Positions 1,047 to 51,787 of a stretch of 56,467 nt of DNA are shown here, in pieces; within the stretch, counting starts at the first letter, position 1; each line of letters starts with the position of its first letter. This stretch comes from Candidatus Nomurabacteria bacterium (GTDB taxonomy: Bacteria > Patescibacteriota > Patescibacteriia > Magasanikbacterales > UBA922). A model generated the notes under the pieces. That model was not told the DNA's origin, made no database searches, and saw only the letters and a program-made list of their open reading frames with translations. A program made the position numbers and the translations under genes. The stretch lies in the NCBI GenBank assembly GCA_020632445.1, contig JACKFN010000006.1:1-56467 (forward strand), written 5' to 3'.

Positions 1047-1075
1047 TTGACAAACTTGCCACATACTGCTATAGT
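1047..1075 (+). promoter_or_regulatory. sigma70-type consensus promoter upstream of GC-rich ORF
   Basis: TTGACA (1047-1052), 17-nt spacer, TATAGT (1070-1075), located in AT-rich DNA. Confidence 0.6.
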
Positions 1076-1128
1076 CAAAATAGAAGAATTGCGTGCAAAA
1101 GGAGGCATCGTAATTCATGATCTTTACA

Positions 1129-1188
1129 TAGACTAACGTCCTACACTGAGGATGGGGTACCTCTCCTCTGTCCAGGACGTTTAGTCTA
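1129..1188 (+). promoter_or_regulatory. inverted repeat / compound stem-loop in the 5' leader of the 1275 ORF
   Basis: tagactaacgtcct (1129-1142) pairs with aggacgtttagtcta (1174-1188): 14 bp with one extra T. It encloses an inner gagga/tcctc stem. The stop codon of the 4-codon uORF (1117-1131) forms the first 3 nt of the left arm. Confidence 0.5.
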
Positions 1189-1274
1189 CAGTAGGTAAGG
1201 GCACAGAGAGCCAATGCCAATCAGTTGACCACGCCCCTGGCAACGGGGGTATTACTGCGCGAAGGGAGACTTCC

Positions 1275-1967
1275 ATGCGCAACTTGACCCCCGCCGTGGC
1301 GTGGTCCTGCTGGGCCGCGCTGATCTTTGTTCTCGCCGCGTGCGGTGAGGACAACAGCCCCAACCCGGCCCCGCCCGTGGACAACCCGGGTGTGGAGAAC
1401 CCGGACGACCGCGAGATGACCCCGCCCGACGACCGCGAGATGACCCCGCCCGACGACCGCGAGATGACCCCGCCCGACGAGCCGCACATCTCCGACCCGG
1501 AGATGAACCGCTTCGCCGAGGACTGCGTGAACGCCGGCGGTGACGTCATGTCGGCGCCCCCGCCGATCGCCTGCAACGTGCGCGGCGACGTGTACGGCCC
1601 CGGCGACGAGCTCCCCGACCCCGAGGAGGTCGATGAGTTCGAGATGCTCTCGAACTACCTCGAACGAAGCTGGTGCATCACCCAGGTGGACGGCGACCTC
1701 TCATGTGAGCGCCCAACCTGGAACGAGGAGTGGCAGACCTTCGGTCCGTTCCCCGGCTCCCTCGTCGACATCGTCTACGAGGGCTTCAAGAGTCGCAACG
1801 ACAGCAACTGCTGGCACCAGGACGATGTCATCGCCATGAAGTGGATCTGCATCCCGAACTTCCCGGAAGAGAACTCGGAGATCGGCTACCGGATCTACTA
1901 CTCGTCCGCCGATGAGCTTCCTTCGGTCGAGGAGATGGCATCCGTGTTCTCGCGGAGCCACGACTGA
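1275..1967 (+). CDS. GC-rich putative secreted lipoprotein with PDDREMTP x3 repeat (likely horizontally acquired)
   Basis: ATG 1275 has GGGAG 6 nt upstream. The N-terminus MRNLTPAVAWSCWAALIFVLAAC is a signal peptide plus lipobox (LAAC). An acidic/Pro repeat and a 6-Cys C-terminal domain follow. GC3 codon bias is strong, unlike all neighbours. Confidence 0.75.
   Translation: MRNLTPAVAWSCWAALIFVLAACGEDNSPNPAPPVDNPGVENPDDREMTPPDDREMTPPDDREMTPPDEPHISDPEMNRFAEDCVNAGGDVMSAPPPIACNVRGDVYGPGDELPDPEEVDEFEMLSNYLERSWCITQVDGDLSCERPTWNEEWQTFGPFPGSLVDIVYEGFKSRNDSNCWHQDDVIAMKWICIPNFPEENSEIGYRIYYSSADELPSVEEMASVFSRSHD
1404..1475 (+). repeat. perfect 3 x 24-bp tandem repeat (coding)
   Basis: gacgaccgcgagatgaccccgccc occurs at 1404-1427, 1428-1451 and 1452-1475, with a 5-nt partial fourth unit. 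It is in frame and encodes DDREMTPP repeats. Confidence 0.95.
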
Positions 1968-1998
1968 TCCTCTTCACCTTCCCCTCCACCCCACCACC

Positions 1999-2024
1999 GT
2001 CATGACGAAACCCTTCGTCATGAC
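1999..2024. other. perfect 11-bp hairpin immediately downstream of the GC-rich ORF
   Basis: gtcatgacgaa (1999-2009), loop accc, ttcgtcatgac (2014-2024). No T-run follows. Confidence 0.8.
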
Positions 2025-2033
2025 ACCCCAATC

Positions 2034-2061
2034 AAAAAAGCGTCTATCGAGGCGTTTTTTT
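2034..2061. terminator. bidirectional intrinsic terminator between convergent genes
   Basis: aaaaaag-cgtc-tatcga-ggcg-ttttttt. The stem is short (one G:U pair) and is flanked by an A-run and a T-run. It lies between the 1967 (+) and 2129 (-) stops. Confidence 0.5.
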
Positions 2062-2128
2062 GATTGTTACATTTTTTACAAAAAAAGAGTAAACATGTAG
2101 CTTACTCTTTCAATATTTTTTTTGAATC

Positions 2129-5100
2129 TTACCTTGTCGGAACCACAATGATCTTTCCAGCAAATTCTACGTATGGTCTGTTATTAAAATTTGGATCATT
2201 TGGGTCAGTAATAACGTCAGAAAAATTCTTCTCGCACATAGGCAATTCGCTTCCTCTTATGCTAAAATCATCCCAACACCCCTCATACCCCACCATAGTC
2301 TGTGAATATTGTGGAGCAAACATTTGCTTTCTTCCTTCTCCCTCAAGCGAAGCACTTCCAGGGAGATATGGTGTCACAAAGAATCTTGATCCATTCTCTT
2401 CTGGTCCTAGGAATAGTGGCTGGTGATATGGCGAATCTTCCACATACAAGACATTTGCACCAAGCCTATATGGCTTATCAAATGCCACACCACTCCTGTT
2501 GTAGTTCGAACGATAGTCGGCGCTACACATACCATTACACCACCCCCAGTTATCCTTTACTTGTACGCGAGGTTTAAAGACACACACCTTGTCACCAACA
2601 CCAACATCATATTCACGCAATTCTCGAATTTCTGCTTCAGAAAATGTGTTATCATTCACAGTCTTTACCCAATCAACTCCACCACTATTGATATCATCCT
2701 GAGTACAGGTATATGTGTGAATAAACTCAAAGTATCCCTCATTACATGCCCTTTGACTATCCCCAAAGTATGCTGGGAAGGATTCACCTTCCGCAGGAAG
2801 TACACACTCCTGCACTGCATGGGTTTCTCCAGCTGCATCACGCCAGTATTCTATAGGACAGTCAGAATTTTGACTACAGAGCAATTGAAGTACTCCATCC
2901 TCATCATTTTCAGAAAGACCACGACAAACACCTATTTGACTTCCGGAAAATGAACTACTCTGACAAAATGGCTTCTGGTTTTTGTAGAGACCTACCTTGT
3001 TTTTGTTTACAATAGAGCTTCCATCCTGCCAGTCAACACGAACCTGACGGATAGGCATAGCATCGTGATCAGCAAAGGCAAAAAATTGCAACTTTGCAGG
3101 TGCTCTACCACGATAAATCATTGCGTCAACAAAGAAATCAGCGTCTTCATCTTCTTTGTCTTCTGGATACACTCCATCGGCATTATAGTCAGTCGTCAAG
3201 TATGTCCTTCCATTTACCGAAACATTATCTTTGGTTCCCGGAGTACATTTTGCGCTATCATTTAATGGAGAACAGGTAACCGGATTGAGAGAATAAATTT
3301 GAGGAGGAATGACTTTTCTTATTACTTCATTGCCCTGATTTCCAACTCTTCCTCCGTTTAAATTGAGTGTCTGTCGCAATAACAATCTACCATTCGCATC
3401 CAAACCGGAAACATCAAGATTTGTGATCGACTTGTCAACAACGTTATTATTCTCACCAAATCCAACTCTCTTAGAAATTTTACTAAAAAGTCCCTTCAAT
3501 ATACCCGCGGCACGTGCTGTTTCAACGTTTTGTGACAGGTCAATCCCTCCGCTCGTTGCAACATCGTTTCTTTCTATAAACTCAAATGGTGATGCAGGAT
3601 ATACATACATTGCATCCCTTCTATATAGCCCAGCACATCCACGGCTTCCATTTCCTCCAGCGGCATTAACTGGTACTTGTCCATTGATATCCGCCAAATA
3701 ATCATACGAAAGTAATTTCGAATCACATTTGTACGGAATACCATTGTAGTCTGGATATGCAAAGGATGCACGTGACAAAAGTAATGATCTGTCAGAGCTT
3801 TCCAAATCCCGATAACTCATAGGCAAACTACCATACGGAGGATTTGGGAACGCATGTCCAATAAATGAGCTATGCCATCCAGTTGCTGTGTCCTTTTGTG
3901 ACTCATTCCATGTTATGTTGGTCCATGCTTTGTTAGCGTCACCACTTATTGGATTAATATCTGAATTATGCACACCGCCATAGTCAACACAGATATCATT
4001 GAGTTCGGCGACAACTCCCACACTAAAGCCTCCGTAAGCGTAATCATCATCATCCTTTTCAGGATTACAAAATCGTGTAATGTACCCCAAAAATTCACCT
4101 TGCTTATTGAAATCCATTCCAATCGCCCAAAAACGACCTCCATTACTTCCTTTGTTTTCACAAATTTCAGAGAAAGGATCAGAACCTTGTATTGGGCGAC
4201 CAACACGGCCTGTGGTTGCAGTTTTCATAAACTCAGGTTCAAAGTCCCTTCCAAATTCTCCAATACTACCATTGTCAGCTAGCACAGCGACATACCTACG
4301 GTGAATTTTGTTTCTCTCGTCTGAAAATGGTGATACTTGATCTGAAATACCCACTCGATAATTGGTAGAATAACCACCGTGAGCAAGATAGTTGTCAAAG
4401 CTGAGGAGCCCATCGACATCACTTGCATCGAGCATATATGTCCACCATTTGTTACGAGCTTCTTCTCCACCATCGATGGTAGGATTTACTTGTCTATGTT
4501 TGTCTCCATATCTTCCAGGTCCTGAGACAAGCTCCAAATTAGCATGTGACTTGATTGATTGTAACTGCTCAAAGTCAATATACAGCTGCTTGTCATACAT
4601 GGCAGGAATACTTTGGTGAGACACATTTCCATGATACGAAGTCACCAAAAAGTAAACTTTGCGTATCTGTTTTTCGTTGAGTGAAGCTTCAATATCTGAT
4701 ACGTACACATACTCATTAGAATTTTTCTCCGGAGAGTAGTACTTTGTATTGATTTTTTGGTTTTCGAAATGGGAAAAAATTTCAGAATTTACAAATGACT
4801 GGTTAGCAACTTTTGCAAAGTCAACGGTATAGTCTGAAATAAAGCTTCCATCTTCTTTCCACAGCCGAGGAGGATGCATCACAGTACCAATTTCAAATCC
4901 TTCATAGTCTCCCCCATTATCACGTCCATCTTGGTTTGAATATGCCCATGTATTTGCGGCAAGCGTATATGGAGCCCATGTGTCAACATTGATTTCAATA
5001 CTTCCATTGTTAATTTCATATCCACCTGCGGCAGCACCATCGACGTTTCCACCATTACCACCCGCGACTCCCTCTCCCATAACATCGTGATGAGCAGCGC

Positions 5101-8100
5101 CCCCTCTGTCGTTTCTAAGTACAACGGCATCTTTTGAGATGTTGTACCAACTCCAAATTTGGAGCAAACTCGTGGTCCCTTTTGTCCCAGGACGACACAC
5201 AACTGCGCGAATATCGCCAGAACCATAGTCTGCATCTTCATCTTCAGAGCAGTCATCATCACCTGAAAGAGGCCTACCCGTATTCTCATCAAAATAGTTG
5301 TCTAAGAAATACTTCAAAAATGGCTTTTCACGATCACGTGCCCCATCAAATCGAAGTGGATAATTTGAGAACGTTAATTCAGAAATTTCTGCTATGTCTG
5401 TATTGTCAGCGTCAGGAATAACAATATCACCATTATTACCTCCTTCATACATTGAACCTCCCGAAGAGTACCGCGTGTACATGTTGCTGGCATCGTATGC
5501 GCCACTTTCCATGGACGTGCTATCGATACAATACACCTCACCACCGGTCGCCGCGCCGGTTGCATCTATGGCATCAATACTTGGATTGTATCCCGCTTCT
5601 ACATTTGAATTAAAGGTATCATTAAGTGCTGCAGAGATTTGCAGTGGCATCCAAGTGAGACATGGGTATTCCTTTCGTGTCTCGAGTTGTATTGGTCTAC
5701 TAAAATCTCTTTCCAGACAGTAACCTTCTACACCAATTCTGACTTCTTTTTTCGATAGCTTGTTACAAATCCCCGGTATAGCAGTAGTTTCTGCGGCTTC
5801 GCCTGGACGAGCAGATTCTGTGTACACATAGGTACAATCTGCGTCAACATTACATGCCTGACCAGCCAAACCATTTCCCGTACACTTCCCTGCAGGAAAA
5901 TTCTTGGTGAGTGGCCAATAATCAGAAGTAATGTCTTCCCCATAATTTACCTTAGTATATCCGCATGAACAATCACCAAACTGGCAAACATTTACCTTTT
6001 CAAAGCCTTGTACGTTCTGTATGTGATCTCTTCTAAACGCGAGATTGCCCTGGTTTTCTGCAATGCTACCACTAAATTGCTCCGCAACATAGTTAGGAAA
6101 CGGACTGTCCTGTTCCGGAAAACTCTTACAGCTACCACCTTCGAGGTATGGAAGGAGATTTGATTCAATTTCTTTCATCCTTTCTACTTGCTGATTGGCA
6201 TTTAAATCGACAAAATCCTCTTCATCGATACGAATACTTGCAGGGAACTGACCGGCAACCGGGTACAGACAACTTCCCTTGTAACAACGGCCACCGTTGT
6301 CTGGTCCACATGCCGTCCAGTTGAGTTCACTTTCGTTCCCTTGCTTACAAGCCCTATCAGAGAACCCTTCATTTCCTTGGTCATCTGGGTCACCGGCAAA
6401 AAACCGATCGTCAACTTTGTGACCTATATAGGTAGTATCATAACCCTCTACGGTAATGAAATATTCAAGATTTGGTATTTGTCTCCTGTTATATAAACTA
6501 TATCCTGTGTACTCAAAACCACTCCATGAAACATTTCTGGTAACATAGCTGTCGTAGTTAAGTGGCTCAAGACCATCGTCAATGCTCTGTGGAGTTACCC
6601 AGCTGACACATTCAGTTCCGTCTTCATTTCGTGCATTACACACTCCATATTCATAACACAGCGGCTCATCACGGCCAGAGATTTTAATTTTACTTCGACA
6701 TTCCAGCCACTCACTACACTGACGATCACGGTTCACCTTGATGATTCTGTTAGCGTCAAGTGTTCGCAAATCATCATTGCTAGGCTCGGTAACGACGTCG
6801 ACCAAACCATAGTTCCCTTCTTGAAAACTTTTCTGGTAGCTTGCTGCTGAGTTGTATACCCTATTAGGATCTTCGGTATAGTTAAAGAGAACACATCCTT
6901 CAGTCTGGCTTACCTGTCCATCACATTGTCCTTCTTTGTCAATAACTTTGTCATTGTAAATAAAGTAATATGGTTCTCCATTTGGATGCTCTGCAGAGGT
7001 GTCTTGTGGATCGATAAATTCACCGCACATGTGCTGTTCAAGTGGACATGAACCGACAAAACCGTCGTATCGGGGTGATTCATTAGAAAAAATTCCAAGC
7101 GCTTCTCCAACAGGAGTGTCCCGCCTCACAAAAAGTGGATCTCGGTAACAGGCTACTGGATCAGCAGTGTTACAGGTTCGAGCGCGCTCTCCATCTGGAG
7201 CCTGTCCACAATCAGCATCGGCCTTACACAACACATCACTGTCATGAGAACAGGTGCCCACTCCCTGGATGTACCAACCGGGAGTTCCACCTTCTGGCTG
7301 CTTGTACTCACAAATCTTGTTTCCAATAACTGCCGGGTCTTTGAAATATATATCAGCGTCCAAACTGAACGTTGAACAACCTAGCTGATCGGCACGACAG
7401 AGCATCTGAGAATAATTTTCAGGTCGATTCATGACATACACATCCTCAAACTGGTAAGCTGACGCCTGGTCATCACGAGGAAGAACCTGTGCCTGCTGCC
7501 CAACCTTAAGACATCCGACCTCATTTGACTGACAAGCAAAGTCCTGGCGAGCTGTCATATATAGAGGACTATCAGCCGGTGTATCTGCCGGAACGTAAAT
7601 ACTGGCAACATCCAAGATAAGTCTATTTTCTGCTGGCAAACCATCTCCAATTCTCCGCAGATCATCTGCATCAGCACCATCAGGCACAACCACTTGCTCG
7701 CCATTTATTTCTACTATTTCCAGTGTTTGATCAATGATAACATTGTTTGGTATATGACAAGTTGTCTGATCTGGAGCGACTTCACATTCAAAACTTTGAC
7801 CATCGTACAGCACCTTACATTTGTTTGAAAGTTCTCTTTCGCGAGATGACATCTCACAAAGCGTGTTGTATACGTGTGCCAAGTCATCCCCTGTCTCAAA
7901 GTCATTGGCTTCCTGTGAATATGAGTTGTAAGTGTCATACATTGGAATACAACCAACAGCATTTTCGCGGCACAGTTTATCAAACCCACTTGTAAACACG
8001 ATCCCCGTATCACCTTCGACATTGGTAAATTGATATTGAGAACAACCAAGTCCCTCTCCAGGAAGACCATCAGTTGGATTTGCGTCACAAGAAAGTGGAA

Positions 8101-11100
8101 CACTCGCGCGAACATTTTGTCCTTGATACTCTACAATGGTTTCCCAACTTCCCTTGATTCGGTATACCTTCTGAGTTGATGGCGAAAGCGAAAGTTTATC
8201 AATAAAGTATGGTTGATTTTGGTCGTCGTTGCTGACAAATACAAGGTTAAGTTCTTGAGAAGCATCTCCACCAAAGAGTACCGGACCCAAAACAACTTCT
8301 CTCCAATTATCTCCAACGGACACTTCTTCTACTTCTTGCTCTGCAATATTATAGGTAAACCGTCCCATTTCCTGACCACCTTGCTCAAAATAAATATCAA
8401 CCGCTTGCGCAACACCACGTGTCCAGAAACGAAGCTCATACCCGGTAGTATTGTCTGATTTGAGCATACCTCCATCAATATGATACTGCGCCCGCACAGC
8501 GCTGATCTGGAGTGAATGTTCATTTGGACTAAGTCCCTCTGCTGCAATCTGTAAATCATTATCATTTTGCGCTGCAAAACCACCCATAGCTTCTTGCAAT
8601 GACTCTTCATTTCCGAAATCATCGGCCTCAAAATCATGTGAGAAAATCGGCGCTGCGACATTGTTTCCACCATTTCCAACATACTCTCTACACATCGCAG
8701 CATCAGGGTTACAACTTTCGGTTCCCTGACCACCTTCAATAGCCTCGTAAATACACACTCCATTTTCATATTTTCCGCCCCCCTGACATCTTTGACATAC
8801 CGGCTCGTCAATTGGAAGATCAAGGTTTTGATTTTCGAGTTGAATTTGGCTTGGAGCTTCCCAAAGACCTCCCCATTGCTGACAGACGTCCTGATCACCT
8901 GCACCAGAGACATTTACATCAATATAAAGCTCTGCGTTGGTCTTTCGAAATGGATTACACTGCGCTGATATTTCTACCGTCTTGGTAACCAAACGATAAT
9001 ATTCCTGGTTATCATCATCAAAGAACCGCAAACACTGCGTTGACCCTTGGTTGTCAGGATTAATATTGTTGATACGATTGTTATACGTCTCTTCATTACA
9101 AAGTTCAAGATATCCAGCGATAACTGCAGGGTCAAAACTATCATAAGCAGGAGATCCTACTGGGAACACCTCATCAAGCTGCGCTTGAACAAGACCATCA
9201 ATAGCACCACGCTGTGCCATGCGAGCTAAATAATCATGTACCTGATCATCGATCTGCAAAAGCCTATGAGTTCGAAGTCGCTGTCCATCGTCTACAGAAG
9301 CTTCCCACGTATAGAATGTTTTTTCATTTTCACGATTGGCGTCTGGCTGCTCACAAAAACGAATCTTCTTGAAATATGCTTCACGCTCACCGGCACCAGC
9401 GGAGAGATCGGTAAATTCTTCACATCCAACGTCTTGCGCTCGACACTCGCCGGCATTTTGACTGTATGGATTGATGTACATTGGGAATTTTTCTGACTCA
9501 AATTGTACCCCCACTTGTCTGTACGCACTGTAGCCAAGACACTCCTGGTTACAAGAACTTCCTCCGACAATTCCCGGCACGAGTGGGTTGGCAGCAACAT
9601 CTCCGTCCACGGTAAGCGGAGTAAATGCCTGACATCCCACCTCCTGCTCAACACAAACCTGTGAAAACTCTCCACACGCAGGATTATTTGGAAGGTCATT
9701 AATTACTTGCGCGAGCGTAGTTGGCCAATCAATTTCTGGAGTAGACCGATCAATATCGTAACAACCCAAATAGTCTGGGGCCTTTTTGAGGAACAGACGT
9801 GTCTGGTTGCTTGCATCTGGATTAGTATAAAAAGCACTACAACCTTCTGCTTCTTGGTTTGCACAGTAGTTTGAAGAGACTTCACTGTTGAGGTAGAGGC
9901 TTCCGTTTCTTCCAAGAAGTTTTAAGTCAACATTAGATGCCGTTTGGTAACTATCAATCCACTGACCATTCTCATCTTGCTCAAGCGCATAGGCAAGACA
10001 TCCACTTGAATTTGCATCACACTGAGCGTAGTCAACGGTTCTTGCCAAGTATGGTGTTATTTGACCGGTAACCTGATTGGTATAGGCCTTACAAGTCGCA
10101 TTTTGCCACTCACAACTATCAGCGCCTGTTCTCCAAATATTTTCTTCTTTGAGACAATATCCGTACGCCTGTGGAGTAACACACTTTCCACTTTCATTTT
10201 CATAAATACAGGTAGAAATGTCTGCGCATTCTGGTTTACGAAGTGCCAAATCCGGCGCCAAAAGCTCAGGACCATACACTCCCATTTCACACTTATGGAG
10301 CGGAGCACGAAGTACCCAATTTGGATTGAGTATTCGACACCATCTAAATTCTGGATCACCAAGCCTCGAAGTATCCAAAAGTTTTTCTCCGGTATCTCCA
10401 TCAATATCATCAATACCATCTCCATTATCATCAACATATGGACAATCATCAAATCCCTCGATAACTTCTTTGAGCGTTGGTGGCTGATCTGGGTCAGAAC
10501 GCAATGCGGCTATCTCAAATCCAAGAGGCAATATTCTTTGTCTACGAAGTTTTTGGAGGTTTGAGTAACAATACGCACCATTGTAGCAGTCCTTATCGTT
10601 ATGCTCTGCTTCATTTACCGGAGAAATTAATTTCCAACTACCATGGAGATACTCGGTTCCATCACCACTACCATTGAGATTCATCGCCTGAGCAATCGTC
10701 ATTGGCTCAGAATTGTTGGCAATATCAAGAGCCTGCGCAAAATCATCATCGATTACACAGTTATTAAGACCCGGATTATCTGGACATGTTCGCATATCCT
10801 GCAAAATATCCTGTGATCCTACCGGAAGTGGATTGACGACCTTCAAGAACGAAAATTCTTTTTTGGCACGCTCACGTGGGTCTATGGCACTGGTATCATT
10901 TTCAAATGAAAGCCCCTGAGCTCCCCTACCTGGATCTGGATAAAGACCTTTGTTGAAGATTTTATCAAGCATCTGATTTGCCAAGGTGTTCAAAAAGACA
11001 GAAGCCGCCATGGGGAAAATCTGCCATGCCTCGGCAGCATACAAACCAGTTATTTGACTGGTAGTGACTTCTCCTTCGTGTTTTGAGGTGTTGACCTTCG

Positions 11101-11863
11101 ATTCTTCTTTGATGGTTTGAGCTGGAGAGAGAATTTTTCCAGAGATAAGACTGGTCAAACTCTTAAAACCATCCCCTTCTTGTCTATCCAGCTTGGCCGA
11201 CTCTGATCGACTGGCACGGCTCTCATCGATCTGTGCAATACCATCAAGCGCAATACCAAAATCGGAATCACTTACTTGAAATGAAGTCGCAAAAACCTCG
11301 TCCATAAAACGAGATCCACCTGGTCCATATTTTCTTTCAAAGGTTTCCTGACTCCAACCATCTTTCAATTTTTGCCAGTTACAAGCACTACCATTTTGGC
11401 CAGCTTTAGCATCGGCATAAGCATTTCGAAGACCAATACGAAGGTTAATAAGCAAGTTGGCGTCTGGAATTTCACACAAATTGAGCCCAGCCTTTTTTCC
11501 GATGGCTTCTACGGTTTCTGCTACGGCGTCACCAGCGGCCTGACCCAGGTAATCCCCAAACGAATCTTGGTGCACGAGTGGGTTTTTTCCTTTTCCACCT
11601 GAAGAAATGTATACCGCTGAATTGTAGGCCAAATCACGCGCATACCGAGACGCAGCGTTTACAAGTACCTGCAATGCACTGGAATACAAAGCATCCCAAA
11701 ATGACGCCTTCACGTCTTTTTGAGTCATGTATGCAACCACGTCAGGAGCTCCAGTAATAGCATAACTTCTTTGGGCATACAAAAATGAGCCCATCACCTG
11801 TATGATCAAAAATACACCGATAAAGAACGCGAGGAAAATTTTTTTGGTCGTGTTTTTTTGCAT
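2129..11863 (-). CDS. giant (3244 aa) Cys-rich secreted/surface protein, N-terminal signal-anchor
   Basis: Uninterrupted 9.7-kb ORF starting at ATG 11863. The N-terminal segment KKIFLAFFIGVFLIIQVMGSFLYA is hydrophobic. The sequence is very Cys-rich from about residue 360 on. It carries acidic DxDxDG-like stretches (DDNGDGIDDIDGDTGE). I recognise no catalytic motif. Confidence 0.85.
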   Translation of the reverse strand: MQKNTTKKIFLAFFIGVFLIIQVMGSFLYAQRSYAITGAPDVVAYMTQKDVKASFWDALYSSALQVLVNAASRYARDLAYNSAVYISSGGKGKNPLVHQDSFGDYLGQAAGDAVAETVEAIGKKAGLNLCEIPDANLLINLRIGLRNAYADAKAGQNGSACNWQKLKDGWSQETFERKYGPGGSRFMDEVFATSFQVSDSDFGIALDGIAQIDESRASRSESAKLDRQEGDGFKSLTSLISGKILSPAQTIKEESKVNTSKHEGEVTTSQITGLYAAEAWQIFPMAASVFLNTLANQMLDKIFNKGLYPDPGRGAQGLSFENDTSAIDPRERAKKEFSFLKVVNPLPVGSQDILQDMRTCPDNPGLNNCVIDDDFAQALDIANNSEPMTIAQAMNLNGSGDGTEYLHGSWKLISPVNEAEHNDKDCYNGAYCYSNLQKLRRQRILPLGFEIAALRSDPDQPPTLKEVIEGFDDCPYVDDNGDGIDDIDGDTGEKLLDTSRLGDPEFRWCRILNPNWVLRAPLHKCEMGVYGPELLAPDLALRKPECADISTCIYENESGKCVTPQAYGYCLKEENIWRTGADSCEWQNATCKAYTNQVTGQITPYLARTVDYAQCDANSSGCLAYALEQDENGQWIDSYQTASNVDLKLLGRNGSLYLNSEVSSNYCANQEAEGCSAFYTNPDASNQTRLFLKKAPDYLGCYDIDRSTPEIDWPTTLAQVINDLPNNPACGEFSQVCVEQEVGCQAFTPLTVDGDVAANPLVPGIVGGSSCNQECLGYSAYRQVGVQFESEKFPMYINPYSQNAGECRAQDVGCEEFTDLSAGAGEREAYFKKIRFCEQPDANRENEKTFYTWEASVDDGQRLRTHRLLQIDDQVHDYLARMAQRGAIDGLVQAQLDEVFPVGSPAYDSFDPAVIAGYLELCNEETYNNRINNINPDNQGSTQCLRFFDDDNQEYYRLVTKTVEISAQCNPFRKTNAELYIDVNVSGAGDQDVCQQWGGLWEAPSQIQLENQNLDLPIDEPVCQRCQGGGKYENGVCIYEAIEGGQGTESCNPDAAMCREYVGNGGNNVAAPIFSHDFEADDFGNEESLQEAMGGFAAQNDNDLQIAAEGLSPNEHSLQISAVRAQYHIDGGMLKSDNTTGYELRFWTRGVAQAVDIYFEQGGQEMGRFTYNIAEQEVEEVSVGDNWREVVLGPVLFGGDASQELNLVFVSNDDQNQPYFIDKLSLSPSTQKVYRIKGSWETIVEYQGQNVRASVPLSCDANPTDGLPGEGLGCSQYQFTNVEGDTGIVFTSGFDKLCRENAVGCIPMYDTYNSYSQEANDFETGDDLAHVYNTLCEMSSRERELSNKCKVLYDGQSFECEVAPDQTTCHIPNNVIIDQTLEIVEINGEQVVVPDGADADDLRRIGDGLPAENRLILDVASIYVPADTPADSPLYMTARQDFACQSNEVGCLKVGQQAQVLPRDDQASAYQFEDVYVMNRPENYSQMLCRADQLGCSTFSLDADIYFKDPAVIGNKICEYKQPEGGTPGWYIQGVGTCSHDSDVLCKADADCGQAPDGERARTCNTADPVACYRDPLFVRRDTPVGEALGIFSNESPRYDGFVGSCPLEQHMCGEFIDPQDTSAEHPNGEPYYFIYNDKVIDKEGQCDGQVSQTEGCVLFNYTEDPNRVYNSAASYQKSFQEGNYGLVDVVTEPSNDDLRTLDANRIIKVNRDRQCSEWLECRSKIKISGRDEPLCYEYGVCNARNEDGTECVSWVTPQSIDDGLEPLNYDSYVTRNVSWSGFEYTGYSLYNRRQIPNLEYFITVEGYDTTYIGHKVDDRFFAGDPDDQGNEGFSDRACKQGNESELNWTACGPDNGGRCYKGSCLYPVAGQFPASIRIDEEDFVDLNANQQVERMKEIESNLLPYLEGGSCKSFPEQDSPFPNYVAEQFSGSIAENQGNLAFRRDHIQNVQGFEKVNVCQFGDCSCGYTKVNYGEDITSDYWPLTKNFPAGKCTGNGLAGQACNVDADCTYVYTESARPGEAAETTAIPGICNKLSKKEVRIGVEGYCLERDFSRPIQLETRKEYPCLTWMPLQISAALNDTFNSNVEAGYNPSIDAIDATGAATGGEVYCIDSTSMESGAYDASNMYTRYSSGGSMYEGGNNGDIVIPDADNTDIAEISELTFSNYPLRFDGARDREKPFLKYFLDNYFDENTGRPLSGDDDCSEDEDADYGSGDIRAVVCRPGTKGTTSLLQIWSWYNISKDAVVLRNDRGGAAHHDVMGEGVAGGNGGNVDGAAAGGYEINNGSIEINVDTWAPYTLAANTWAYSNQDGRDNGGDYEGFEIGTVMHPPRLWKEDGSFISDYTVDFAKVANQSFVNSEIFSHFENQKINTKYYSPEKNSNEYVYVSDIEASLNEKQIRKVYFLVTSYHGNVSHQSIPAMYDKQLYIDFEQLQSIKSHANLELVSGPGRYGDKHRQVNPTIDGGEEARNKWWTYMLDASDVDGLLSFDNYLAHGGYSTNYRVGISDQVSPFSDERNKIHRRYVAVLADNGSIGEFGRDFEPEFMKTATTGRVGRPIQGSDPFSEICENKGSNGGRFWAIGMDFNKQGEFLGYITRFCNPEKDDDDYAYGGFSVGVVAELNDICVDYGGVHNSDINPISGDANKAWTNITWNESQKDTATGWHSSFIGHAFPNPPYGSLPMSYRDLESSDRSLLLSRASFAYPDYNGIPYKCDSKLLSYDYLADINGQVPVNAAGGNGSRGCAGLYRRDAMYVYPASPFEFIERNDVATSGGIDLSQNVETARAAGILKGLFSKISKRVGFGENNNVVDKSITNLDVSGLDANGRLLLRQTLNLNGGRVGNQGNEVIRKVIPPQIYSLNPVTCSPLNDSAKCTPGTKDNVSVNGRTYLTTDYNADGVYPEDKEDEDADFFVDAMIYRGRAPAKLQFFAFADHDAMPIRQVRVDWQDGSSIVNKNKVGLYKNQKPFCQSSSFSGSQIGVCRGLSENDEDGVLQLLCSQNSDCPIEYWRDAAGETHAVQECVLPAEGESFPAYFGDSQRACNEGYFEFIHTYTCTQDDINSGGVDWVKTVNDNTFSEAEIRELREYDVGVGDKVCVFKPRVQVKDNWGWCNGMCSADYRSNYNRSGVAFDKPYRLGANVLYVEDSPYHQPLFLGPEENGSRFFVTPYLPGSASLEGEGRKQMFAPQYSQTMVGYEGCWDDFSIRGSELPMCEKNFSDVITDPNDPNFNNRPYVEFAGKIIVVPTR

Positions 11864-14862: not shown

Positions 14863-17800
14863 TTATTGAGCGATGGTTGTAAGTTGCTGTGTAGCGGTAT
14901 TTTCAAAAGCATCACGAAGTGTCACTTCAAAAACATACTCCCTACCGGTTTCAAGACCATATACTTTCCACAAACGCTGTGTCTTGAGTATATTACTATT
15001 TGCTATTGGCTTACCATTTACAATGACGTTCACCGCGGTAGGCTCACTACTGAGAATCTGCAGCGTGTGGTAGTCCGCACTGATGTGATCCAGACTCAAA
15101 CCTTGAAAACTGGGATTAACACTGTCCCTTTGAGAATCATAGGAAGTAATGGTAACGCGAGCGATGGCATGTTGCGCAGTAATTTCGTTACTCACAAGGG
15201 TAACGACATAATCGTCCACGCTCTCAAAACACTGCACGAAGGTATAGTCCTTGTAATCGCGTGAGGTAATAAACTGTGAAGTCACAGAGTCTTCTTGATT
15301 GATTTTTATGCCAAGTGGATATGCGAATACGGAATTAAGTGTCTTTGCGTTGACGATCACAGAGTAACATCCCGCCTGAGTTGGACGAAAATTCACATAG
15401 GCAACCGAGCTTCGGTTAATCCCTGCGTAGGCAACATTGTACGCAATATTACTTCCACGAATCTGCGTTGGTGCAAACGTCCAAGTCAAATCACCCGTAG
15501 CAGAATTGCAATCATTGTCTATTCCATCGCCATTAACCTCAACAGCCCCAGGATTCACACTGGCATTCACGTCATTACAGTCAACCGGCACAGCGTATCC
15601 ATCGCCATCCTGATCACTATCTTTGGTGCTACTATCACAGTCATTATCTTTGCCGTCGTAAAAAATTTCTTTTCCTCCTGGTCGCACATCAGGATCATTG
15701 TCATTACAGTCAAACTGCACAAGCGACCCATCACCATCAGCGTCTTGAAGCTGATCAAGATCCTCCAAAATCACAATGAGTTTGTCGATATACAAATTGT
15801 TATCAATTGGTGGATCATACACATCGTTGGTAAATTCCATTCTGATGACATGCATACCTGCCCCTACCTTTGTAGACGCTTTGTACCTTTTGAAGCCGGC
15901 AGAATTGACATCAAAAGTCCCAATGACCACGCCATCAACACTAAGTTTCATCTGGGCGTTAAGTCCTTGAAAAATATCACCACGCGCTGCAACCTCAAAA
16001 CCATACTTTCCAGGAAGCAGCTGAACACTTTGTTCTACATAGCCATTACTATAGAGTGCAACAGAATCAGAAAATCGCTCAGAAACATTCGCCACAAGAT
16101 TCGCCATGTTTTCTGCTTCAAACTGGATGATTCTATTATTTCCATTGTCAGTTGTTCCAGCATTACAGTCATCATCAATACCATTTCCTAAAATCTCACT
16201 TCCACCCGGATTGATGCGAGCATTATTATCATCACAATCCACCTCTACCGTAAATCCATCACCATCATTGTCAAATGAGTAAAAGATAAACCTATCATTG
16301 TTTGAGGTCATGAAACTGCGAATCTGCGAACGCTTTGCGTTTCCGGCAGCGTCTTTTGATTCGATCTGGTAATAGTACCTCTTGTTACGAATAAGATTCG
16401 GCAAAATGACGCCGTGTGACTGAGTAAGAAATCCTGTTCCAATTTCACTGGTCATGCTTTCAGTAGTCAAACCATAAAAGACGGCGGAACTTGCAGGTTC
16501 ACTGGTTTGCCAGATAATACGCGCCTGCCCGGTAGTGATGTTTGTTTCGAGGATATTAAAGATTTGTGGCTGCTTGAAGTCAGGTGAAACAATGTCACCG
16601 CCCAGAAGTTTTCCATGTGCAAATAAATACATTTCACCTTGTCCAAGGAGCGCATTAAACTCCCGAACAGAGAAATACTGAAGTGGGCTGCCTGCGTAGG
16701 AAAGGTTGGCACTTCCATACTCAAAAGCTCTTCGAGCATCGCCCATGAGTTCGGCATTACCAGCTACATAGGCATGAGCAGCAAAAGCGTCTGCATACGC
16801 CAAGACGTCAGCGTTTGCAAGCTTTGATTGTGCACCATTTGCGTCGCACGCAAAATATTCATAGTTTTGTGCGCCATACACGAATCCTTTGAGCAAACTC
16901 GCACGAGACACGACCAAGTCCACCGCCTTTTGATCCACCAAAATGGCATTATCTTTGGAAACTTGATAGTAATGAGCTACCGCACTGATAGCCCTGGCCT
17001 GCTCAAGACTTGCCGCACAGGATTTGTCGAGACTTCCGGAAGCATTCACCGTCCAGAGATATTCTACAAGCCGTCTTGCCAGAGTGAGGTATTCCCTGTC
17101 ACCAAGCTGCTCATATCCGGCGATGAGTGCCTCAAGTGCTCCGGCAGTGTCATCGTTCAAACCGATCGTCACATCCTCTCGACACGTATTATCGCACTGT
17201 TTCAAAAGTAATGTCTGTGCCAATGCTGGATTATCTCTATATTCTAAATGCGTAAGACGATAGTACATATTATCCAGGATCTCTCGTCCAGTTTGCTCAA
17301 GCATTGGATCCGCGGTCTCTTTAGCCATTGCTAAAATTGCTCCTACCTTTTGCGCCTGCTCAAGGCTTGTACCAAATGAACCTCTATGCACATTGTTGCT
17401 CCCAGCATCCTGGAGAGTAAAATCATAAACACCACCCTCATACCAACGACGATCAGCATATTTTCCTTCAATTTGACTATGATGAACATCAATATCAGCG
17501 CTATGTCTTACCCCGGCGCGCAAAAGCGTATACCACAGGTCTTTTTGCTCGTCACTGAGTGTCCGTTTTGACTGTCTATACATTCCACCGAGCACGTCCC
17601 CGGGAAGATTTGATGGAAGCTGACCAGCAGCGCCACGGAGTGGGATATCACCATAGTCTATCATGCCATATAAATTGTTTTTTTGTATATCATCAAAAAC
17701 ACTGACTGCCTGTGACAATCCTGCGTTAAAGTTCTCAGGTCTTTGTATCTGTGTACTCAGAGCTGATTCGTATCCACTAAAATTTTGCCAATAACTACCG

Positions 17801-21842: not shown

Positions 21843-21844
21843 AT

Positions 21845-34805: not shown

Positions 34806-36242
34806 TTAACTTTTCATTTTAGACTTCTGATGCAAATCATACCACTCAAAACCATCCATGTGAGGAAGTTTGTGCTGGGCTTTTGGTCCCTCACTTCCAT
34901 CTTCATATATGTGAAGCTTTGAACAGTCTCCCTCCATAAGATACTCCATTTGATCAACCACTTTCCATGCAGAAAGTATCTCAGAAAAACTGAGGAAATG
35001 CGTACGCTCTCCCTCAAGTATATCAAGCAAAAGCATACCATGCTCTGGCAGACATCCTTCCACATCACAGGCAATCGAATCCGCGGTGGTAATCGATTGA
35101 TAGTGTGACACTCCCTCATGGAGATTCACGAGTTCAATATTGATTTTTGGGTATGGATAAAATTCAATGATAATTCTGTTCGGTTGCTCTTTGGGATTTT
35201 GAAAGGGAAATTTTTTCAGTTCAATCGAAACATAGGTGTGTTTTTCATGAAGCATTTTCCCGGTTCTTATGTATATTGGAACCTTGTACCAGTCTTCTTT
35301 GTCAATAAATAACCTCACTGCTGCAAACGTCTCTGTTCGTGAACCTTTTTTTACGCCATCTTGCTTTTTATAACTTTTGTACTGCCCGAGCACAACGTTA
35401 TTATCATCACACGGACAATCAATAGCTTCAAGGATGTTGTTTTTTTCACGTTTCAGGCTTTGTGAGCTGATATTGTTTGGTATTGCCATTGTGGTGAGCG
35501 CAAAGATTTGTAAAAGGTGTGATTGAATCATGTCCTTCACAATCCCCACCTGCTCGAAATACCCAATGCGATGCTCCACACCAATATTTTCAAGCGCAGT
35601 AATCTGAATATTTGCTATTTCGCTTCCTCTCAAAATATTTGCGAGAATTCTGTTTGAGCGTCTCATGTTCAAAATAGATTGAACCGATGACTTACCTAGG
35701 TAATGATCAAGAAGGTAAAACTGATCTTCCTTGAAATGCCTTGAAACAAAGTGAAATAAATCCTCTGCACTCTTGTAGCTTTCTCCAAACGGTTTTTCAA
35801 TCACAAGTCGAATGTCGTCACTTTTGCTCTTACGTGACTTGGCAAGGTTTTGAATGATCGGTTTGAAAACGACAGGAGGAACAGAAAAATACGCGATGTG
35901 CGCCATTTTTTTACGAGAAAGTTTTGAAAGAAACTGGTGATACTCCTTAAAATCTTGAAAAACATCGTACTGCCCAGAAAAATAATGGAAATGTGAAACA
36001 AGCTGTTTAAGCACCTTTGGTTTTATTTTTTCGGATGAATACTTCTTGATGCTCTGCGTGACGACTTTCTGAAACTCTTTTTGAGATATTTGTGTTCTAG
36101 AGTACCCAACGATACAAAAATCTTTTGGAAGCCTTTCTTGACGTGCCAATGTATAGAGTGCTGGAAAAATTTTCATCTTTGCCAAGTCACCGGAGGCACC
36201 AAATATGGTAAGGATGAATGGTTTTTTGAGTTTTTCGATCAT
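34806..36242 (-). CDS. zwf: glucose-6-phosphate 1-dehydrogenase
   Basis: IFGASGDLAKMK, IEKPFG and LDHYLGK motifs. The start is set at ATG 36242 (MIEKLKKPF). The track's 98-codon extension runs antisense through the GC island. Confidence 0.92.
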   Translation of the reverse strand: MIEKLKKPFILTIFGASGDLAKMKIFPALYTLARQERLPKDFCIVGYSRTQISQKEFQKVVTQSIKKYSSEKIKPKVLKQLVSHFHYFSGQYDVFQDFKEYHQFLSKLSRKKMAHIAYFSVPPVVFKPIIQNLAKSRKSKSDDIRLVIEKPFGESYKSAEDLFHFVSRHFKEDQFYLLDHYLGKSSVQSILNMRRSNRILANILRGSEIANIQITALENIGVEHRIGYFEQVGIVKDMIQSHLLQIFALTTMAIPNNISSQSLKREKNNILEAIDCPCDDNNVVLGQYKSYKKQDGVKKGSRTETFAAVRLFIDKEDWYKVPIYIRTGKMLHEKHTYVSIELKKFPFQNPKEQPNRIIIEFYPYPKINIELVNLHEGVSHYQSITTADSIACDVEGCLPEHGMLLLDILEGERTHFLSFSEILSAWKVVDQMEYLMEGDCSKLHIYEDGSEGPKAQHKLPHMDGFEWYDLHQKSKMKS

Positions 36243-36302
36243 AGAATTGTTTTTTTCTGATATTTGTCGTACACTAGTAAGCACACACCCTGGGAGTTCA
36301 CC

Positions 36303-36578
36303 ATGCGAAAGATGATTCTGATTCCCTCTTCGGCCAACGCGAAGGGCATCGTGCTGATGCTGGTCAATGTGATCTTCATGTCCATGCTGAGCTTTGAGCC
36401 GCCCTCCATGAGCTTGGATCAACTCGCTCTGTACGCGCAGCTGGGCGTGGTGCTGATGATCGCCGATGGCGCCATGCTGATGTACTACGTGTGCAAGCAA
36501 TTCACCTCCATGCATCTCGTCGATGAAAGCGAACAACCGCCCACCACCGAAGCTTCCACTCCCACCTCAAACTCCTAG
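36303..36578 (+). CDS. GC-elevated small (91 aa) two-TM membrane protein, likely acquired
   Basis: ATG 36303 has GGGAG 6 nt upstream. Hydrophobic segments are GIVLMLVNVIFMSMLSF and LGVVLMIADGAMLMYYV. Hand-counted G+C is 31/60 (36361-36420) and 38/60 (36421-36480). It is plus-strand between minus-strand gnd and zwf. Confidence 0.6.
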   Translation: MRKMILIPSSANAKGIVLMLVNVIFMSMLSFEPPSMSLDQLALYAQLGVVLMIADGAMLMYYVCKQFTSMHLVDESEQPPTTEASTPTSNS

Positions 36579-36592
36579 CCACCCATGCTAGG
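36574..36592. other. 6-bp GC hairpin overlapping the stop codon of the 36303 ORF
   Basis: cctagc (36574-36579), loop cacccat, gctagg (36587-36592). The TAG stop at 36576-36578 lies inside the left arm. Confidence 0.6.
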
Positions 36593-50638: not shown

Positions 50639-50857
50639 TTAGATGACGAGCATGGCAACTCCAAGTGCAAAGAAAATGAGTGCAAGCACTATGGTTGCCC
50701 TATGTAAGAAGAGGTCAACACCACGTTTGGTAAGGGTTACTCCACCGCCTGTTCCACCAAATCCAGCTCCAAGCCCATCACCTTTTTGCTGAAGCAAAAT
50801 AGTGAGCATCATAACGATTCCAACGATAACTTGTGCAATAGTAAGTACTTTTTCCAT
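50639..50857 (-). CDS. secG: preprotein translocase subunit SecG
   Basis: 72 aa with two TM segments and LLQQKGDGLGAGFGG in the Gly-rich loop. Confidence 0.85.
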   Translation of the reverse strand: MEKVLTIAQVIVGIVMMLTILLQQKGDGLGAGFGGTGGGVTLTKRGVDLFLHRATIVLALIFFALGVAMLVI

Positions 50858-50865
50858 ATGTTTGT

Positions 50866-50894
50866 ATTATAGCAAACCTCTTTTAGGCTGCCAA
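50866..50894 (-). promoter_or_regulatory. secG promoter placing the TSS at/near the ATG (leaderless)
   Basis: Minus strand reads TTGGCA (50894-50889), 17 nt, TATAAT (50871-50866), then only 8 nt (acaaacat) before ATG 50857. Confidence 0.6.
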
Positions 50895-51006
50895 GATCCA
50901 ATTTTGTCCTGATTTCTCCGGGTTCCATTTATGAGTACAAGATGTATTCAATGGCGATAGTGTACAAAAATACGGCTTTTTTGTCAATACTCAAACATCT
51001 CAACCC

Positions 51007-51035
51007 TTGACAAATGTGCTAAAATATGCTAATAT
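51007..51035 (+). promoter_or_regulatory. consensus promoter upstream of GC-rich ORF
   Basis: TTGACA (51007-51012), 17 nt, TAATAT (51030-51035). Confidence 0.6.
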
Positions 51036-51076
51036 ACCTTGTTCCCACATATGTGCCCAAGGGGCAGGAGGTTGTG

Positions 51077-51697
51077 ATGGGATGGCACAAGAACCCCGCT
51101 TTGTGGGGTGTCGCACTGGGTCTTCTGGCCGTTCAGGTCCTGCTGGCCGCTCTGGGCTGGTGGAAGGCCCTGTGGTGCCTGGACACCAGCCTGATCGTCG
51201 GAGTCACTGTCTGGAACTTCCGTGAGTTCTTCCGGAAGTTCGCGTTCAACGACCAGTTCGATGGACAGCTCCCACTCGTCATCCAGTCCATTCCTGGGCT
51301 GCCGCGACGCCAGGTGCGCATGCGCTCGGTCGTGATCCGACGCGTGAACGGCACCGGTCCCTTCGCCATCAAGCTGGGGATGCGCCTGATGGACGGCCTG
51401 GACTGGTACGGCGCGGTCAACAGCGGAGACAAGAGTGGCGGCCACACCAACACGCTGGTGTTCGAAACCTTCGTTGGCAGTCGAAACTGGGGCATGGTCG
51501 TCATGTACCGGAGCCGGCCCAACACGGCCAGCATACAGGTCGAAGGGCTTGGCGAAGTGACGATGCGTAACGGGGTTTCCATCCTCGACCCTCGTGACTT
51601 CACCATCGAGGTGACCGACCAGCCTCCCTTCGCCCCTACCCAGACTTTCGCTCCCCACCTCATTCAACGCATCCTGGCCCGACTCGGCTGGATGTAG
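51077..51697 (+). CDS. GC-rich membrane-anchored protein of unknown function, likely acquired
   Basis: AGGAGG (51066-51071) lies 5 nt before ATG 51077. The track's 51026 start would sit inside the promoter. The N-terminus is hydrophobic (ALWGVALGLLAVQVLLAALGWW) and is followed by a soluble domain of about 150 aa. Hand-counted G+C is 44/60 for 51301-51360. Confidence 0.7.
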   Translation: MGWHKNPALWGVALGLLAVQVLLAALGWWKALWCLDTSLIVGVTVWNFREFFRKFAFNDQFDGQLPLVIQSIPGLPRRQVRMRSVVIRRVNGTGPFAIKLGMRLMDGLDWYGAVNSGDKSGGHTNTLVFETFVGSRNWGMVVMYRSRPNTASIQVEGLGEVTMRNGVSILDPRDFTIEVTDQPPFAPTQTFAPHLIQRILARLGWM

Positions 51698-51702
51698 AAG
51701 CC

Positions 51703-51722
51703 GGCGCGCCCCACCGCGCGCC
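51703..51722. other. 7-bp all-GC hairpin just after the stop of the GC-rich ORF
   Basis: ggcgcgc (51703-51709), loop cccacc, gcgcgcc (51716-51722). No T-run follows. Confidence 0.7.
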
Positions 51723-51765
51723 ACCCTCAACACACAAACGTTTGAGCATAAAAATATCTAAACAC

Positions 51766-51787
51766 AGCGCCAATAGGCGTTTTTTTG
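51766..51787 (+). terminator. intrinsic terminator
   Basis: agcgcc-aata-ggcgt followed by ttttttt, located in AT-rich DNA. Confidence 0.55.

Follow-up and report, generated by a model that had tools for sequence, protein, structure and literature searches.

Three GC-rich envelope-gene islands in a segment of a putative Saccharibacteria chromosome: apparently acquired single-gene units that keep a foreign composition

The stretch of DNA analysed here, contig JACKFN010000006.1 from position 1 to 56,467 (56 kb, hereafter the window), has a background GC content of ~0.42 and carries almost all of its genes on the minus strand, from 0.2 to 50.9 kb. Embedded in it are three GC-rich islands, numbered 1, 3 and 2 in order of position, each consisting of a single open reading frame (ORF). 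Their GC content is 0.69 for island 1 (1.2-1.8 kb), 0.50-0.52 for island 3 (36.2-36.8 kb) and 0.60-0.62 for island 2 (51.0-51.6 kb), and their GC content at third codon positions (GC3) is 0.91, 0.78 and 0.81 respectively, against 0.24-0.48 in 40+ native ORFs; the robust z score of island 1 GC3 is 12.8. No other ORF in the window combines a GC3 of at least 0.62 with an overall GC above 0.55, and the base and codon composition of all three islands lies far outside the resident distribution, as is expected of acquired islets. The features of the islands are listed below with their coordinates in nucleotides (nt), the lengths of their products in amino acids (aa) and any Shine-Dalgarno (SD) motif; L091 and L092 are contigs carrying relatives of island 1, from a sister lineage and from a high-GC organism respectively.

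Island 1
1047..1075, plus strand: promoter TTGACA-17-TATAGT with a TG-extended -10 element, 11/12 consensus matches, in AT-rich resident DNA
1083..1274, plus strand: leader of ~190 nt, GC 0.52, parts of it shared with L091 and L092
about 1130-1189, plus strand: long, conserved hairpin in the leader
1233-1250, plus strand: small hairpin GCCCCTG-GCAA-CGGGGGT, preceded by TTGACC (1225-1230)
1264-1268, plus strand: SD motif GGGAG, six nt before the ATG
1275..1967, plus strand: ORF of 230 aa, predicted lipoprotein from a signal peptide with lipobox, GC 0.66
1968..2024, plus strand: 3' tail, a C-rich, G-poor tract with CCACCCCACC
1999-2024, plus strand: predicted hairpin with an 11-bp stem and no U-tract, at the end of the tail
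2029..2066, both strands: resident intrinsic terminator, AT-rich and bidirectional, common to island 1 and the convergent giant gene (2129-11863, minus strand)
Island 3
36292..36296, plus strand: SD motif GGGAG-N6-ATG
36303..36578, plus strand: ORF of 91 aa with two hydrophobic segments, GC 0.55
36574..36592, plus strand: weak hairpin CCTAGC-CACCCAT-GCTAGG, overlapping the stop codon
Island 2
51007..51035, plus strand: promoter TTGACA-17-TAATAT with TG, 10/12 consensus matches, in AT-rich resident DNA
51066..51071, plus strand: SD motif AGGAGG-N5-ATG, preceded by a small hairpin TGCCC-AAG-GGGCA
51077..51697, plus strand: ORF of 206 aa, GC 0.62
51703..51722, plus strand: hairpin GGCGCGC-CCCACC-GCGCGCC, a 7-bp all-GC stem with no U-tract
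51766..51781, plus strand: resident AT-rich intrinsic terminator, 3' of island 2

The common architecture that a sequence-only reading had proposed for the islands is confirmed. There is one plus-strand ORF per island, at three separate sites, and the GC3 periodicity matches the plus frame; islands 1 and 3 are surrounded by minus-strand genes, and island 2 occupies the point at which the coding strand changes, from SecG (minus) to L31 (plus). The occurrence of all three on the plus strand is not in itself significant (p about 0.25). The SD motifs are present at all three starts, at 1264, 36292 and 51066, and no such motif was found at -4 to -9 of the 36 native starts (Fisher p about 1e-4). Consensus promoters in AT-rich DNA precede islands 1 and 2 and canonical AT-rich terminators follow them, so that by consensus matching these two islands have a promoter and a terminator of their own. 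The GC-rich 3' hairpins are strong at islands 1 and 2, but the third one that had been described, at island 3, is weak (6 bp, z -1.35) and not significant alone.

Initiation at the native genes appears to be of a different kind. A -10-like (TATAAT-like) hexamer ends 3-12 nt before the ATG in 7/36 native starts, and AT directly precedes the ATG in 14/36, often as cATATG; the genes at 20485-21582, 30767-32077 and 50639-50857 are examples that start without an SD motif. This suggests that leaderless or very short-leader mRNAs may be the resident mode. The leader of island 1 has no match in Rfam, where a riboswitch or other known RNA was sought. At 1100-1131 (plus strand) it also contains an AGGAGG followed 11 nt later by a mini-ORF of four codons (ATG ATC TTT ACA TAG), which is probably incidental, as it is not conserved in L091.

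All three products are of the envelope type, as had been predicted: to judge from their sequence features, one is a lipoprotein and two are small membrane proteins. The island 1 protein has a hydrophobic segment at residues 4-25 and a predicted lipobox, LAAC, at residues 20-23 of its signal peptide, where its homologues carry LSAC and LTAC, as expected of a lipoprotein. It also has a Pro/Asp-rich linker (DDREMTPP x3) and a Cys-containing C-terminal domain. The DDREMTPP copies are encoded at 1401-1481 by a 24-nt unit repeated three times in tandem at 96-100% identity, which appears to be a recent expansion because the L091 and L092 homologues are without it. The island 2 product is predicted to consist of an N-terminal hydrophobic (transmembrane) helical hairpin followed by a beta-rich domain. 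AlphaFold2 gave a poor model for it (pLDDT 59), with which a fold search of the PDB returned only generic beta-sandwich matches (E >= 0.05, TM about 0.25), and the model of the island 1 protein was unusable (pLDDT 44). The island 3 protein was an orphan in a word-index search. Pfam, NCBIfam and PHROGs gave no match for any island protein, or for two proteins of other lineages that are described below (the L003 lipoprotein and L001 Y). There was no tblastn match to island 1 or 2 in phage and plasmid collections and no relative of any of the three islands in IMG/VR, nor were phage families or phage matches found among the neighbours in the window, where the surroundings are housekeeping genes.

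The sharp composition steps at the islands, together with their single-copy status in databases, would suit a chimeric contig produced by metagenome mis-assembly, an alternative that had been raised from the outset. Logan contigs from three sequencing runs (SRR12358675, SRR12358676 and SRR14234112) match the window at 99.96-100% and independently cover the junctions of islands 2 and 3. One of them, L093, runs through gnd, island 3 and zwf and covers both island 3 junctions; the 5' side of island 2 is covered by L096 and L097, which contain SecG and the promoter and reach at most 230 nt into the ORF, while L094 and L095 contain the end of island 2 and continue into L31 and prfA. Furthermore, related but non-identical contigs from SRR29965070 and SRR29965071 hold islands 2 and 1 in the same surroundings. 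The independent contigs exclude mis-assembly at islands 2 and 3; the island 1 junctions are backed by a relative's contig, in which the gene again lies beside the giant gene, and not by a contig of the identical strain. Overall, the chance that the islands are assembly artefacts is negligible.

The direction of change can be read at the sites of islands 2 and 3, which an outgroup comparison covers. The outgroup is a 606-kb Saccharibacteria contig (L034) whose gnd, zwf, SecG and L31 are 55%, 63%, 60% and 71% identical to those of the window; its gnd|zwf spacer is 13 nt long and its SecG|L31 spacer 240 nt, neither with an island. Since the outgroup keeps both gene junctions without them, islands 2 and 3 are derived insertions into native spacers. 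Island 3 lies antisense in the 366 nt that separate the gnd stop (36609) from the true start of zwf (ATG at 36242). The longest zwf ORF (34806-36536, minus strand; 576 aa with a TTG start) crosses the island antisense and is an artefact of a GC-rich insert that misleads gene callers: the gene called on the Logan contig has 564 aa, the Pfam G6PD domain begins only at residue 111, and the real start at 36242 gives a protein of 478 aa.

Islands 1 and 2 also occur in a sister lineage, represented by two Logan contigs. In L001 a homologue of the island 2 protein (P0003, 52-55% identity) is encoded between SecG and L31, and in L091 a homologue of the island 1 protein (P0005) adjoins the giant gene. 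The junction positions are identical, and promoters, leader motifs, SD motifs and 3' hairpins are all kept: the island 1 promoter is 82% conserved in L091 and the island 2 promoter is conserved in L001, while the hairpin stems of both islands persist through compensating changes (GTCATGGCG..CGCCATGAC in L091 for island 1; 85% conservation with the stem kept in L001 for island 2). The two lineages are far apart. Housekeeping proteins are 68-90% identical, the proportion of synonymous differences (pS) is 0.70-0.82 and thus saturated, and identity at 4-fold sites of housekeeping genes is near the level expected from composition. As the same junctions are occupied in a lineage with saturated synonymous sites, islands 1 and 2 predate the split and are old acquisitions. 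Recent capture, as the sequence-only reading had implied, is thereby contradicted for these two islands; presence in relatives is what that reading had itself named as the mark of ancient genes.

A relative outside the clade is available for island 1. An exhaustive HMMER search of 1.84 billion cluster representatives returned three full-length family members, namely the window protein, P0005 from L091 and P0006, which is 40% identical to the island 1 protein and encoded on L092 (JGI 3300041081, Ga0452205_056776). This 7.3-kb contig has a GC content of about 68% (65-70%), looks like an actinobacterial mobile element and encodes a fusion of reverse transcriptase (RT) and Cas1 as well as an ArdC-like anti-restriction protein, whose best plasmid matches are in Actinomycetota (among them Leifsonia, Herbiconiux, Rhodococcus, Dietzia and Cutibacterium) at 37-40% identity. 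L092 and the window also have sequence in common outside the ORF. Both have TTGACC ahead of a hairpin with a 7-bp stem and a GNAA-type loop (TTGACCACGCCCCTG..CGGGGG), in the form GCCCCTG-TGAA-CGGGGGC in L092 and GCCCCTG-GCAA-CGGGGGT in the window, and both have a GGAG SD motif, an ATGCGCA start and a C-rich tail that contains CCCACC and GTCATGACG. The copy on L092 likewise ends in a GC hairpin without a U-tract. Because the L092 homologue shares these non-coding ends, the SD motif and the U-less GC hairpin are most simply read as expression signals that a donor gene brought with it, and not as marks of a capture device. The transferred unit of island 1 would then comprise a donor leader, the ORF and a donor-type terminator. 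The 3' tails of the islands are C-rich and G-poor (C 0.38-0.53, G 0.07-0.20), which we take to be a likeness to Rho-utilisation tracts.

The explanation favoured here, with a probability of about 0.68 as a whole, is that the islands are horizontally acquired, self-contained single-gene expression units. A donor gene would have moved with its own leader (small hairpin and SD motif) and its own 3' end, a C-rich, G-poor tract with a GC hairpin lacking a U-tract as in high-GC bacteria, and the fragment would have entered an intergenic spacer, the route probably being illegitimate recombination of host DNA that had been taken up. Transcription would start at a consensus sigma-70 promoter of the resident AT-rich DNA and stop at a resident intrinsic terminator. 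The products are fast-evolving, and their site of action is presumably the cell surface or the host interface. That the islands are foreign, as first proposed, agrees with the absence of islands 2 and 3 at the outgroup junctions and with the island 1 homologue on a high-GC contig; for the source, high-GC bacteria are most likely, either Actinomycetota-type hosts or mobile elements of such hosts. Gene flow from host to symbiont, which had been one of two suggestions, stands as the likeliest source.

Several observations weigh against this explanation. The demonstrated high-GC homologue is that of island 1; islands 2 and 3 had no relative outside Saccharibacteria in a word-index search, the only kind made for them, and the phylum of L092 is drawn from 37-40% matches of one ArdC-like protein. 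Upstream of island 3 no promoter passed the scan threshold, a promoter-like TTGTTT-17-TACACT at about 36247-36275, seen by eye, being weak, and the island lies antisense inside what the outgroup has as an operon. Furthermore, simple old horizontal transfer predicts amelioration towards the resident GC3 of about 0.38, and none is seen, and in a phylogeny of island 1 the two syntenic copies are no closer to each other than to the high-GC copy; both points are taken up below.

On L092 itself, the shared leader hairpin comes directly after the stop codon of the upstream gene, and the small ORFs around the homologue are further genes for exported or Cys-rich proteins. The homologue is bracketed by a direct repeat of 42 nt (36 nt identical, GTTGCGGCGGTTCACATAACGCTGATTGTGCGACAC) at 5991-6032 and 6813-6854, ~2 kb from the RT-Cas1 gene. 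Only two copies of this 36-42-nt repeat were found, and none in IMG/VR. By its length and its GTTGC...GCGAC ends it is presumably akin to a repeat of the CRISPR (clustered regularly interspaced short palindromic repeats) type, a whole gene taking the place of the spacer.

The setting of the L092 copy, next to RT-Cas1 and flanked on both sides by a 36-nt sequence resembling a CRISPR repeat, speaks for the idea that reverse-transcribed host mRNA, from its 5' untranslated region to its terminator hairpin, was integrated downstream of a resident promoter. The donor-like segment does extend from the SD leader to the terminator hairpin with the promoters in resident DNA, and import of host RNA by Patescibacteria has been reported (bioRxiv 10.64898/2026.06.21.733656). 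However, no reverse transcriptase is encoded among the window proteins, poly-A-like or target-site duplication marks are absent, and the segment shared with L092 may begin within an upstream terminator rather than where transcription starts. Such retro-capture is considered highly improbable.

A further suggestion of the sequence-only reading was a dedicated capture system, integron-like or directed by hairpins, that inserts ORF-plus-hairpin cassettes. In its favour, all four gene families of the clade (islands 1-3 plus L001 gene Y) have CCCACC or CCACCC within or adjoining the 3' hairpin, a motif that follows none of the 36 native genes (joint shuffle probability about 0.003, for a motif chosen post hoc), a second insert, gene Y, sits in the same SecG|L31 spacer of L001, and the 42-nt repeat units lie 822 nt apart around the L092 homologue. 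Against this, the window was confirmed to encode no integrase, transposase or recombinase in 56 kb, and no direct repeats or att-like cores flank any island. The 3' hairpins are short perfect stems of differing sequence and not 57-141-nt imperfect palindromes of the attC type, GTTRRRY/RYYYAAC cores were not seen on reading the junction sequences, and the cassettes are scattered, not arrayed, and have their own promoters. CCCACC is likely to follow from the C-rich composition of the tails (P 0.06-0.40 per tail). With neither a recombinase nor an att- or attC-like site nor direct repeats, a dedicated mechanism is very unlikely, and the shared recombination motif that had been looked for in the hairpins and junctions did not emerge, the hairpin sequences being different and CCCACC barely exceeding what composition predicts. 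As a recombination site CCCACC was set aside and is kept as a lead only, since tail composition nearly accounts for it.

The islands can be set beside known systems. As in integron cassettes, a small ORF is followed by a hairpin-forming site, the products are often exported and of unknown function, and the L092 homologue is bounded by a repeated element. Unlike integron cassettes, the islands come with no IntI or attI (there is no tyrosine recombinase in the 56 kb) and no long imperfect attC palindromes with GTTRRRY cores; their 3' hairpins are perfect stems of 19-26 nt with unrelated sequences, and in place of an array they are 35 kb and 15 kb apart, islands 1 and 2 with promoters of their own. 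They differ from transposons and insertion sequences in the lack of a transposase and of flanking direct repeats. The islands resemble phage morons, which were reportedly described by Hendrix, Juhala and colleagues in ~2000 as single extra genes of deviant composition with their own promoter and terminator, inserted between two other genes. Like morons, the islands have one ORF per unit, a sigma-70 promoter, a terminator, deviant GC and an intergenic position, without recombinase or repeats, and membrane proteins or lipoproteins are frequent products of both. Unlike morons, they lie in the cellular chromosome of a reduced epibiont and not in a prophage, without any relative in PHROGs, phage collections or IMG/VR; the island promoter appears to be resident and not imported, and the units have been kept across a deep lineage split. 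On this view, an ancestor of the clade would have fixed foreign envelope genes, derived most probably from high-GC hosts or from their mobile elements, as moron-like single-gene units at three intergenic sites.

Transfer from Actinomycetota hosts to Saccharimonadia is documented (bioRxiv 10.64898/2026.09.16.751625). The islands resemble the published cases in having a Saccharibacteria recipient, an Actinomycetota-type donor and physical association as the likely route. The published transfers, however, are recent (>99% identity) and multi-gene, with recombinase genes (bioRxiv 10.64898/2026.09.16.751625; cf. Cell Rep 2020, PMC7427843), whereas the islands are single genes without recombinases, old (39-55% syntenic identity) and unameliorated.

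The absence of amelioration is the least expected property of the islands. Under the model associated with Lawrence and Ochman, acquired DNA is said to decay to the resident composition in proportion to synonymous turnover. The islands are recognised, as in that model, by deviant GC3 and codon usage, but in both lineages GC3 is still 0.87-0.91 (island 1) and 0.77-0.81 (island 2) despite saturated turnover. Given that native synonymous sites are saturated, island GC3 should have drifted most of the way to ~0.38. Instead, the values for island 1 are 0.91, 0.87 and 0.87 in the window, L091 and L092, and for island 2 they are 0.81 and 0.77 in the two lineages. The third-position frequencies of island 1 (A3/C3/G3/T3) are 0.03/0.57/0.34/0.06 in the window, 0.04/0.57/0.29/0.09 in L091 and 0.04/0.57/0.30/0.08 in L092; GC1 and GC2 are equally unchanged even though the proteins are 39-41% identical. 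Meanwhile, the three copies form a star: informative nucleotide sites group the window with L091 in 103 cases, the window with L092 in 95 and L091 with L092 in 102. Along the gene the signal is mildly heterogeneous (chi-square p = 0.017): L091 groups with L092 in the N-terminal third and with the window in the C-terminal part. Donor composition that persists across saturated divergence, combined with a star phylogeny, remains unexplained by simple old transfer and needs either gene-specific selection or repeated re-copying, and to this extent a version of the earlier idea of repeated capture stays alive.

Re-copying would mean that a conserved slot was inserted once and that its ORF was then repeatedly overwritten by recombination with high-GC (host) homologues. 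The source would be DNA, or RNA-derived DNA, taken up by a naturally competent epibiont, with the cassette ends as homology arms; composition would then stay at donor values and each epibiont lineage would track the allele of its own host. This would account for the near-identical codon-position composition of three copies despite 59-61% protein divergence, for the perfect star and for the change of signal between the N- and C-terminal parts. It also fits the non-coding ends conserved across phyla, an ORF that is the most diverged part while the junction positions of the window and L091 match, and the published uptake of host nucleic acid by Saccharibacteria. On the other side, no close donor allele exists among 15 billion proteins, the nearest relatives of island 1 being ~40% identical, and the clusters of P0001, P0002 and P0004 contain solely the window's own proteins. 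Identity at 4-fold sites between island 2 and its syntenic partner is 0.49 against 0.34 expected, as would be expected had the two diverged together by vertical descent; for RecA-type recombination the shared blocks, at 11-15 nt, are short, and the mosaic signal is weak. Allele replacement is therefore possible but on the unlikely side.

Vertical descent in place, with gene-specific selection for GC-rich codons or mRNA holding GC3 near 0.8-0.9, would be the other way out. Possible reasons for such selection include SD-led translation, mRNA stability, slow translation for membrane insertion and imported host tRNAs. The same junctions, promoter and leader in both lineages are as expected from vertical descent, as are an island synonymous divergence that resembles that of the native neighbours and GC-rich non-coding hairpins kept through compensating changes. 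However, selection of this kind would need to operate at ~200 synonymous sites in each gene, within a small, reduced genome whose highly expressed native genes (GroEL, L31 and SecG) favour AT-ending codons (GC3 0.34-0.49). It also leaves the star phylogeny unaccounted for, along with first- and second-position composition that is unchanged despite a ratio of non-synonymous to synonymous substitution (dN/dS) of about 0.5-0.8. This alternative, too, is rather doubtful. A broader and equally tentative proposal, for which the odds are low, is that the symbiosis itself keeps a set of envelope genes in the high-GC 'dialect' of the host (GC3 0.8-0.9, SD motifs and host-type terminators) by an active process, which could be either continual re-copying of host alleles or selection for translation in the host-attached state, for instance with imported host tRNAs, or for work with host machinery; the resident balance of mutation and selection would then not set the composition of these genes.

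The sequence-only reading had also proposed that such genomes capture envelope genes repeatedly, and the recurrence holds up in several lineages (L003, L068 and gene Y of L001), although the capture device does not. The survey covered about 900 kb of Saccharibacteria/Patescibacteria loci fetched with the NDH2 protein of the window as query from GTDB and JGI, a set that also supplied the outgroup contig L034. Strong GC3-outlier genes are rare in it. L003 encodes a 265-aa lipoprotein (4025-4822, minus strand) with a GC of 0.61 against 0.42, a GC3 of 0.68 against about 0.36 and a C-rich tail, and its relative L068 has a GC-elevated lipoprotein gene (9452-9838, minus strand) with a GC3 of 0.49 against 0.22-0.29. 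Both lie next to the same tsaE-like gene, and each is provided with a consensus promoter located in AT-rich sequence. Homology between these two lipoproteins was considered and rejected, as their alignment score fell within that of shuffles. Gene Y of L001 (8521-8967, in the region 8440-9010) lies between island 2 and L31 and is missing from the window. It encodes 148 aa with an N-terminal membrane anchor and has a GC3 of 0.56 against 0.36 in native genes, its own promoter-like site and a 3' hairpin, GGCCG-TCCCCACCC-CGGCC. The SecG|L31 spacer thus appears to have gained or lost a second unit. The recurrent outlier genes are all predicted to encode exported or membrane proteins, and the three of the window, within 56 kb, make it unusually rich.

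Saccharibacteria and other Patescibacteria live attached to host bacteria, and how they acquire surface proteins and match their hosts is largely unknown. The islands would be clean, datable host-type envelope genes fixed in an epibiont genome and, together with the Actinomycetota-like partner contig, they point to candidate host-interface proteins and a likely host phylum. The lack of amelioration across saturated divergence and the star phylogeny contradict the standard model of how acquired DNA ages; re-copying, or translation that depends on the codon dialect, would if true be a new way for symbiosis to shape genome composition. Recent preprints report that hosts hold CRISPR spacers against Saccharimonadia and that Patescibacteria codon usage is complementary to that of the host. 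Along with those on DNA exchange and RNA import, they make the re-copying and selection ideas worth testing, with neither proven. Furthermore, SD-led islands set among SD-less and often near-leaderless native genes are a natural experiment on translation initiation in the candidate phyla radiation (CPR).

The native gene set of the window is mainly housekeeping. Pfam assigns zwf, gnd, pgl, tal, pgi, NusA, YidC, KsgA, Sua5 and GroES/EL as well as RF1, RF2, L31, SecG, RNase J, TrpS and NDH2, and the window also encodes an exosortase-like protein, an O-antigen-ligase-like protein and a 3244-aa giant protein; no tRNA gene or Rfam family was found in it. The nearest relatives of NDH2 are from uncultured Candidatus Saccharibacteria, at 39-41% identity in GTDB species genomes and <=49% in JGI metagenomes, and on the strength of these relatives the window is read as a piece of the chromosome of a divergent, poorly sampled Saccharibacterium (Patescibacteria/CPR).

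The giant gene (2129-11863, minus strand) has a counterpart in the sister lineage whose product is 57% identical, and no Pfam domain was found in the two ~955-aa end segments of the protein that were tested. A second large gene (14863-19113, minus strand) encodes a 1416-aa protein with MopE-type metal-binding motifs and CBM60 and fn3-like domains. Both are probably large surface proteins. Finally, a candidate small RNA of ~140 nt lies at 21670-21880 (plus strand), between prfB and the exosortase-like gene. The region contains no ORF longer than 38 aa and has no Rfam match even at E <= 1; it has a TTGACC-17-TAAAAT promoter, a clean intrinsic terminator, a fold z-score of -6.2 and a long closing helix in which GACCGAGGGAAAGAGGTC is paired with GACCTCTCCCTCCCTCGGTC.

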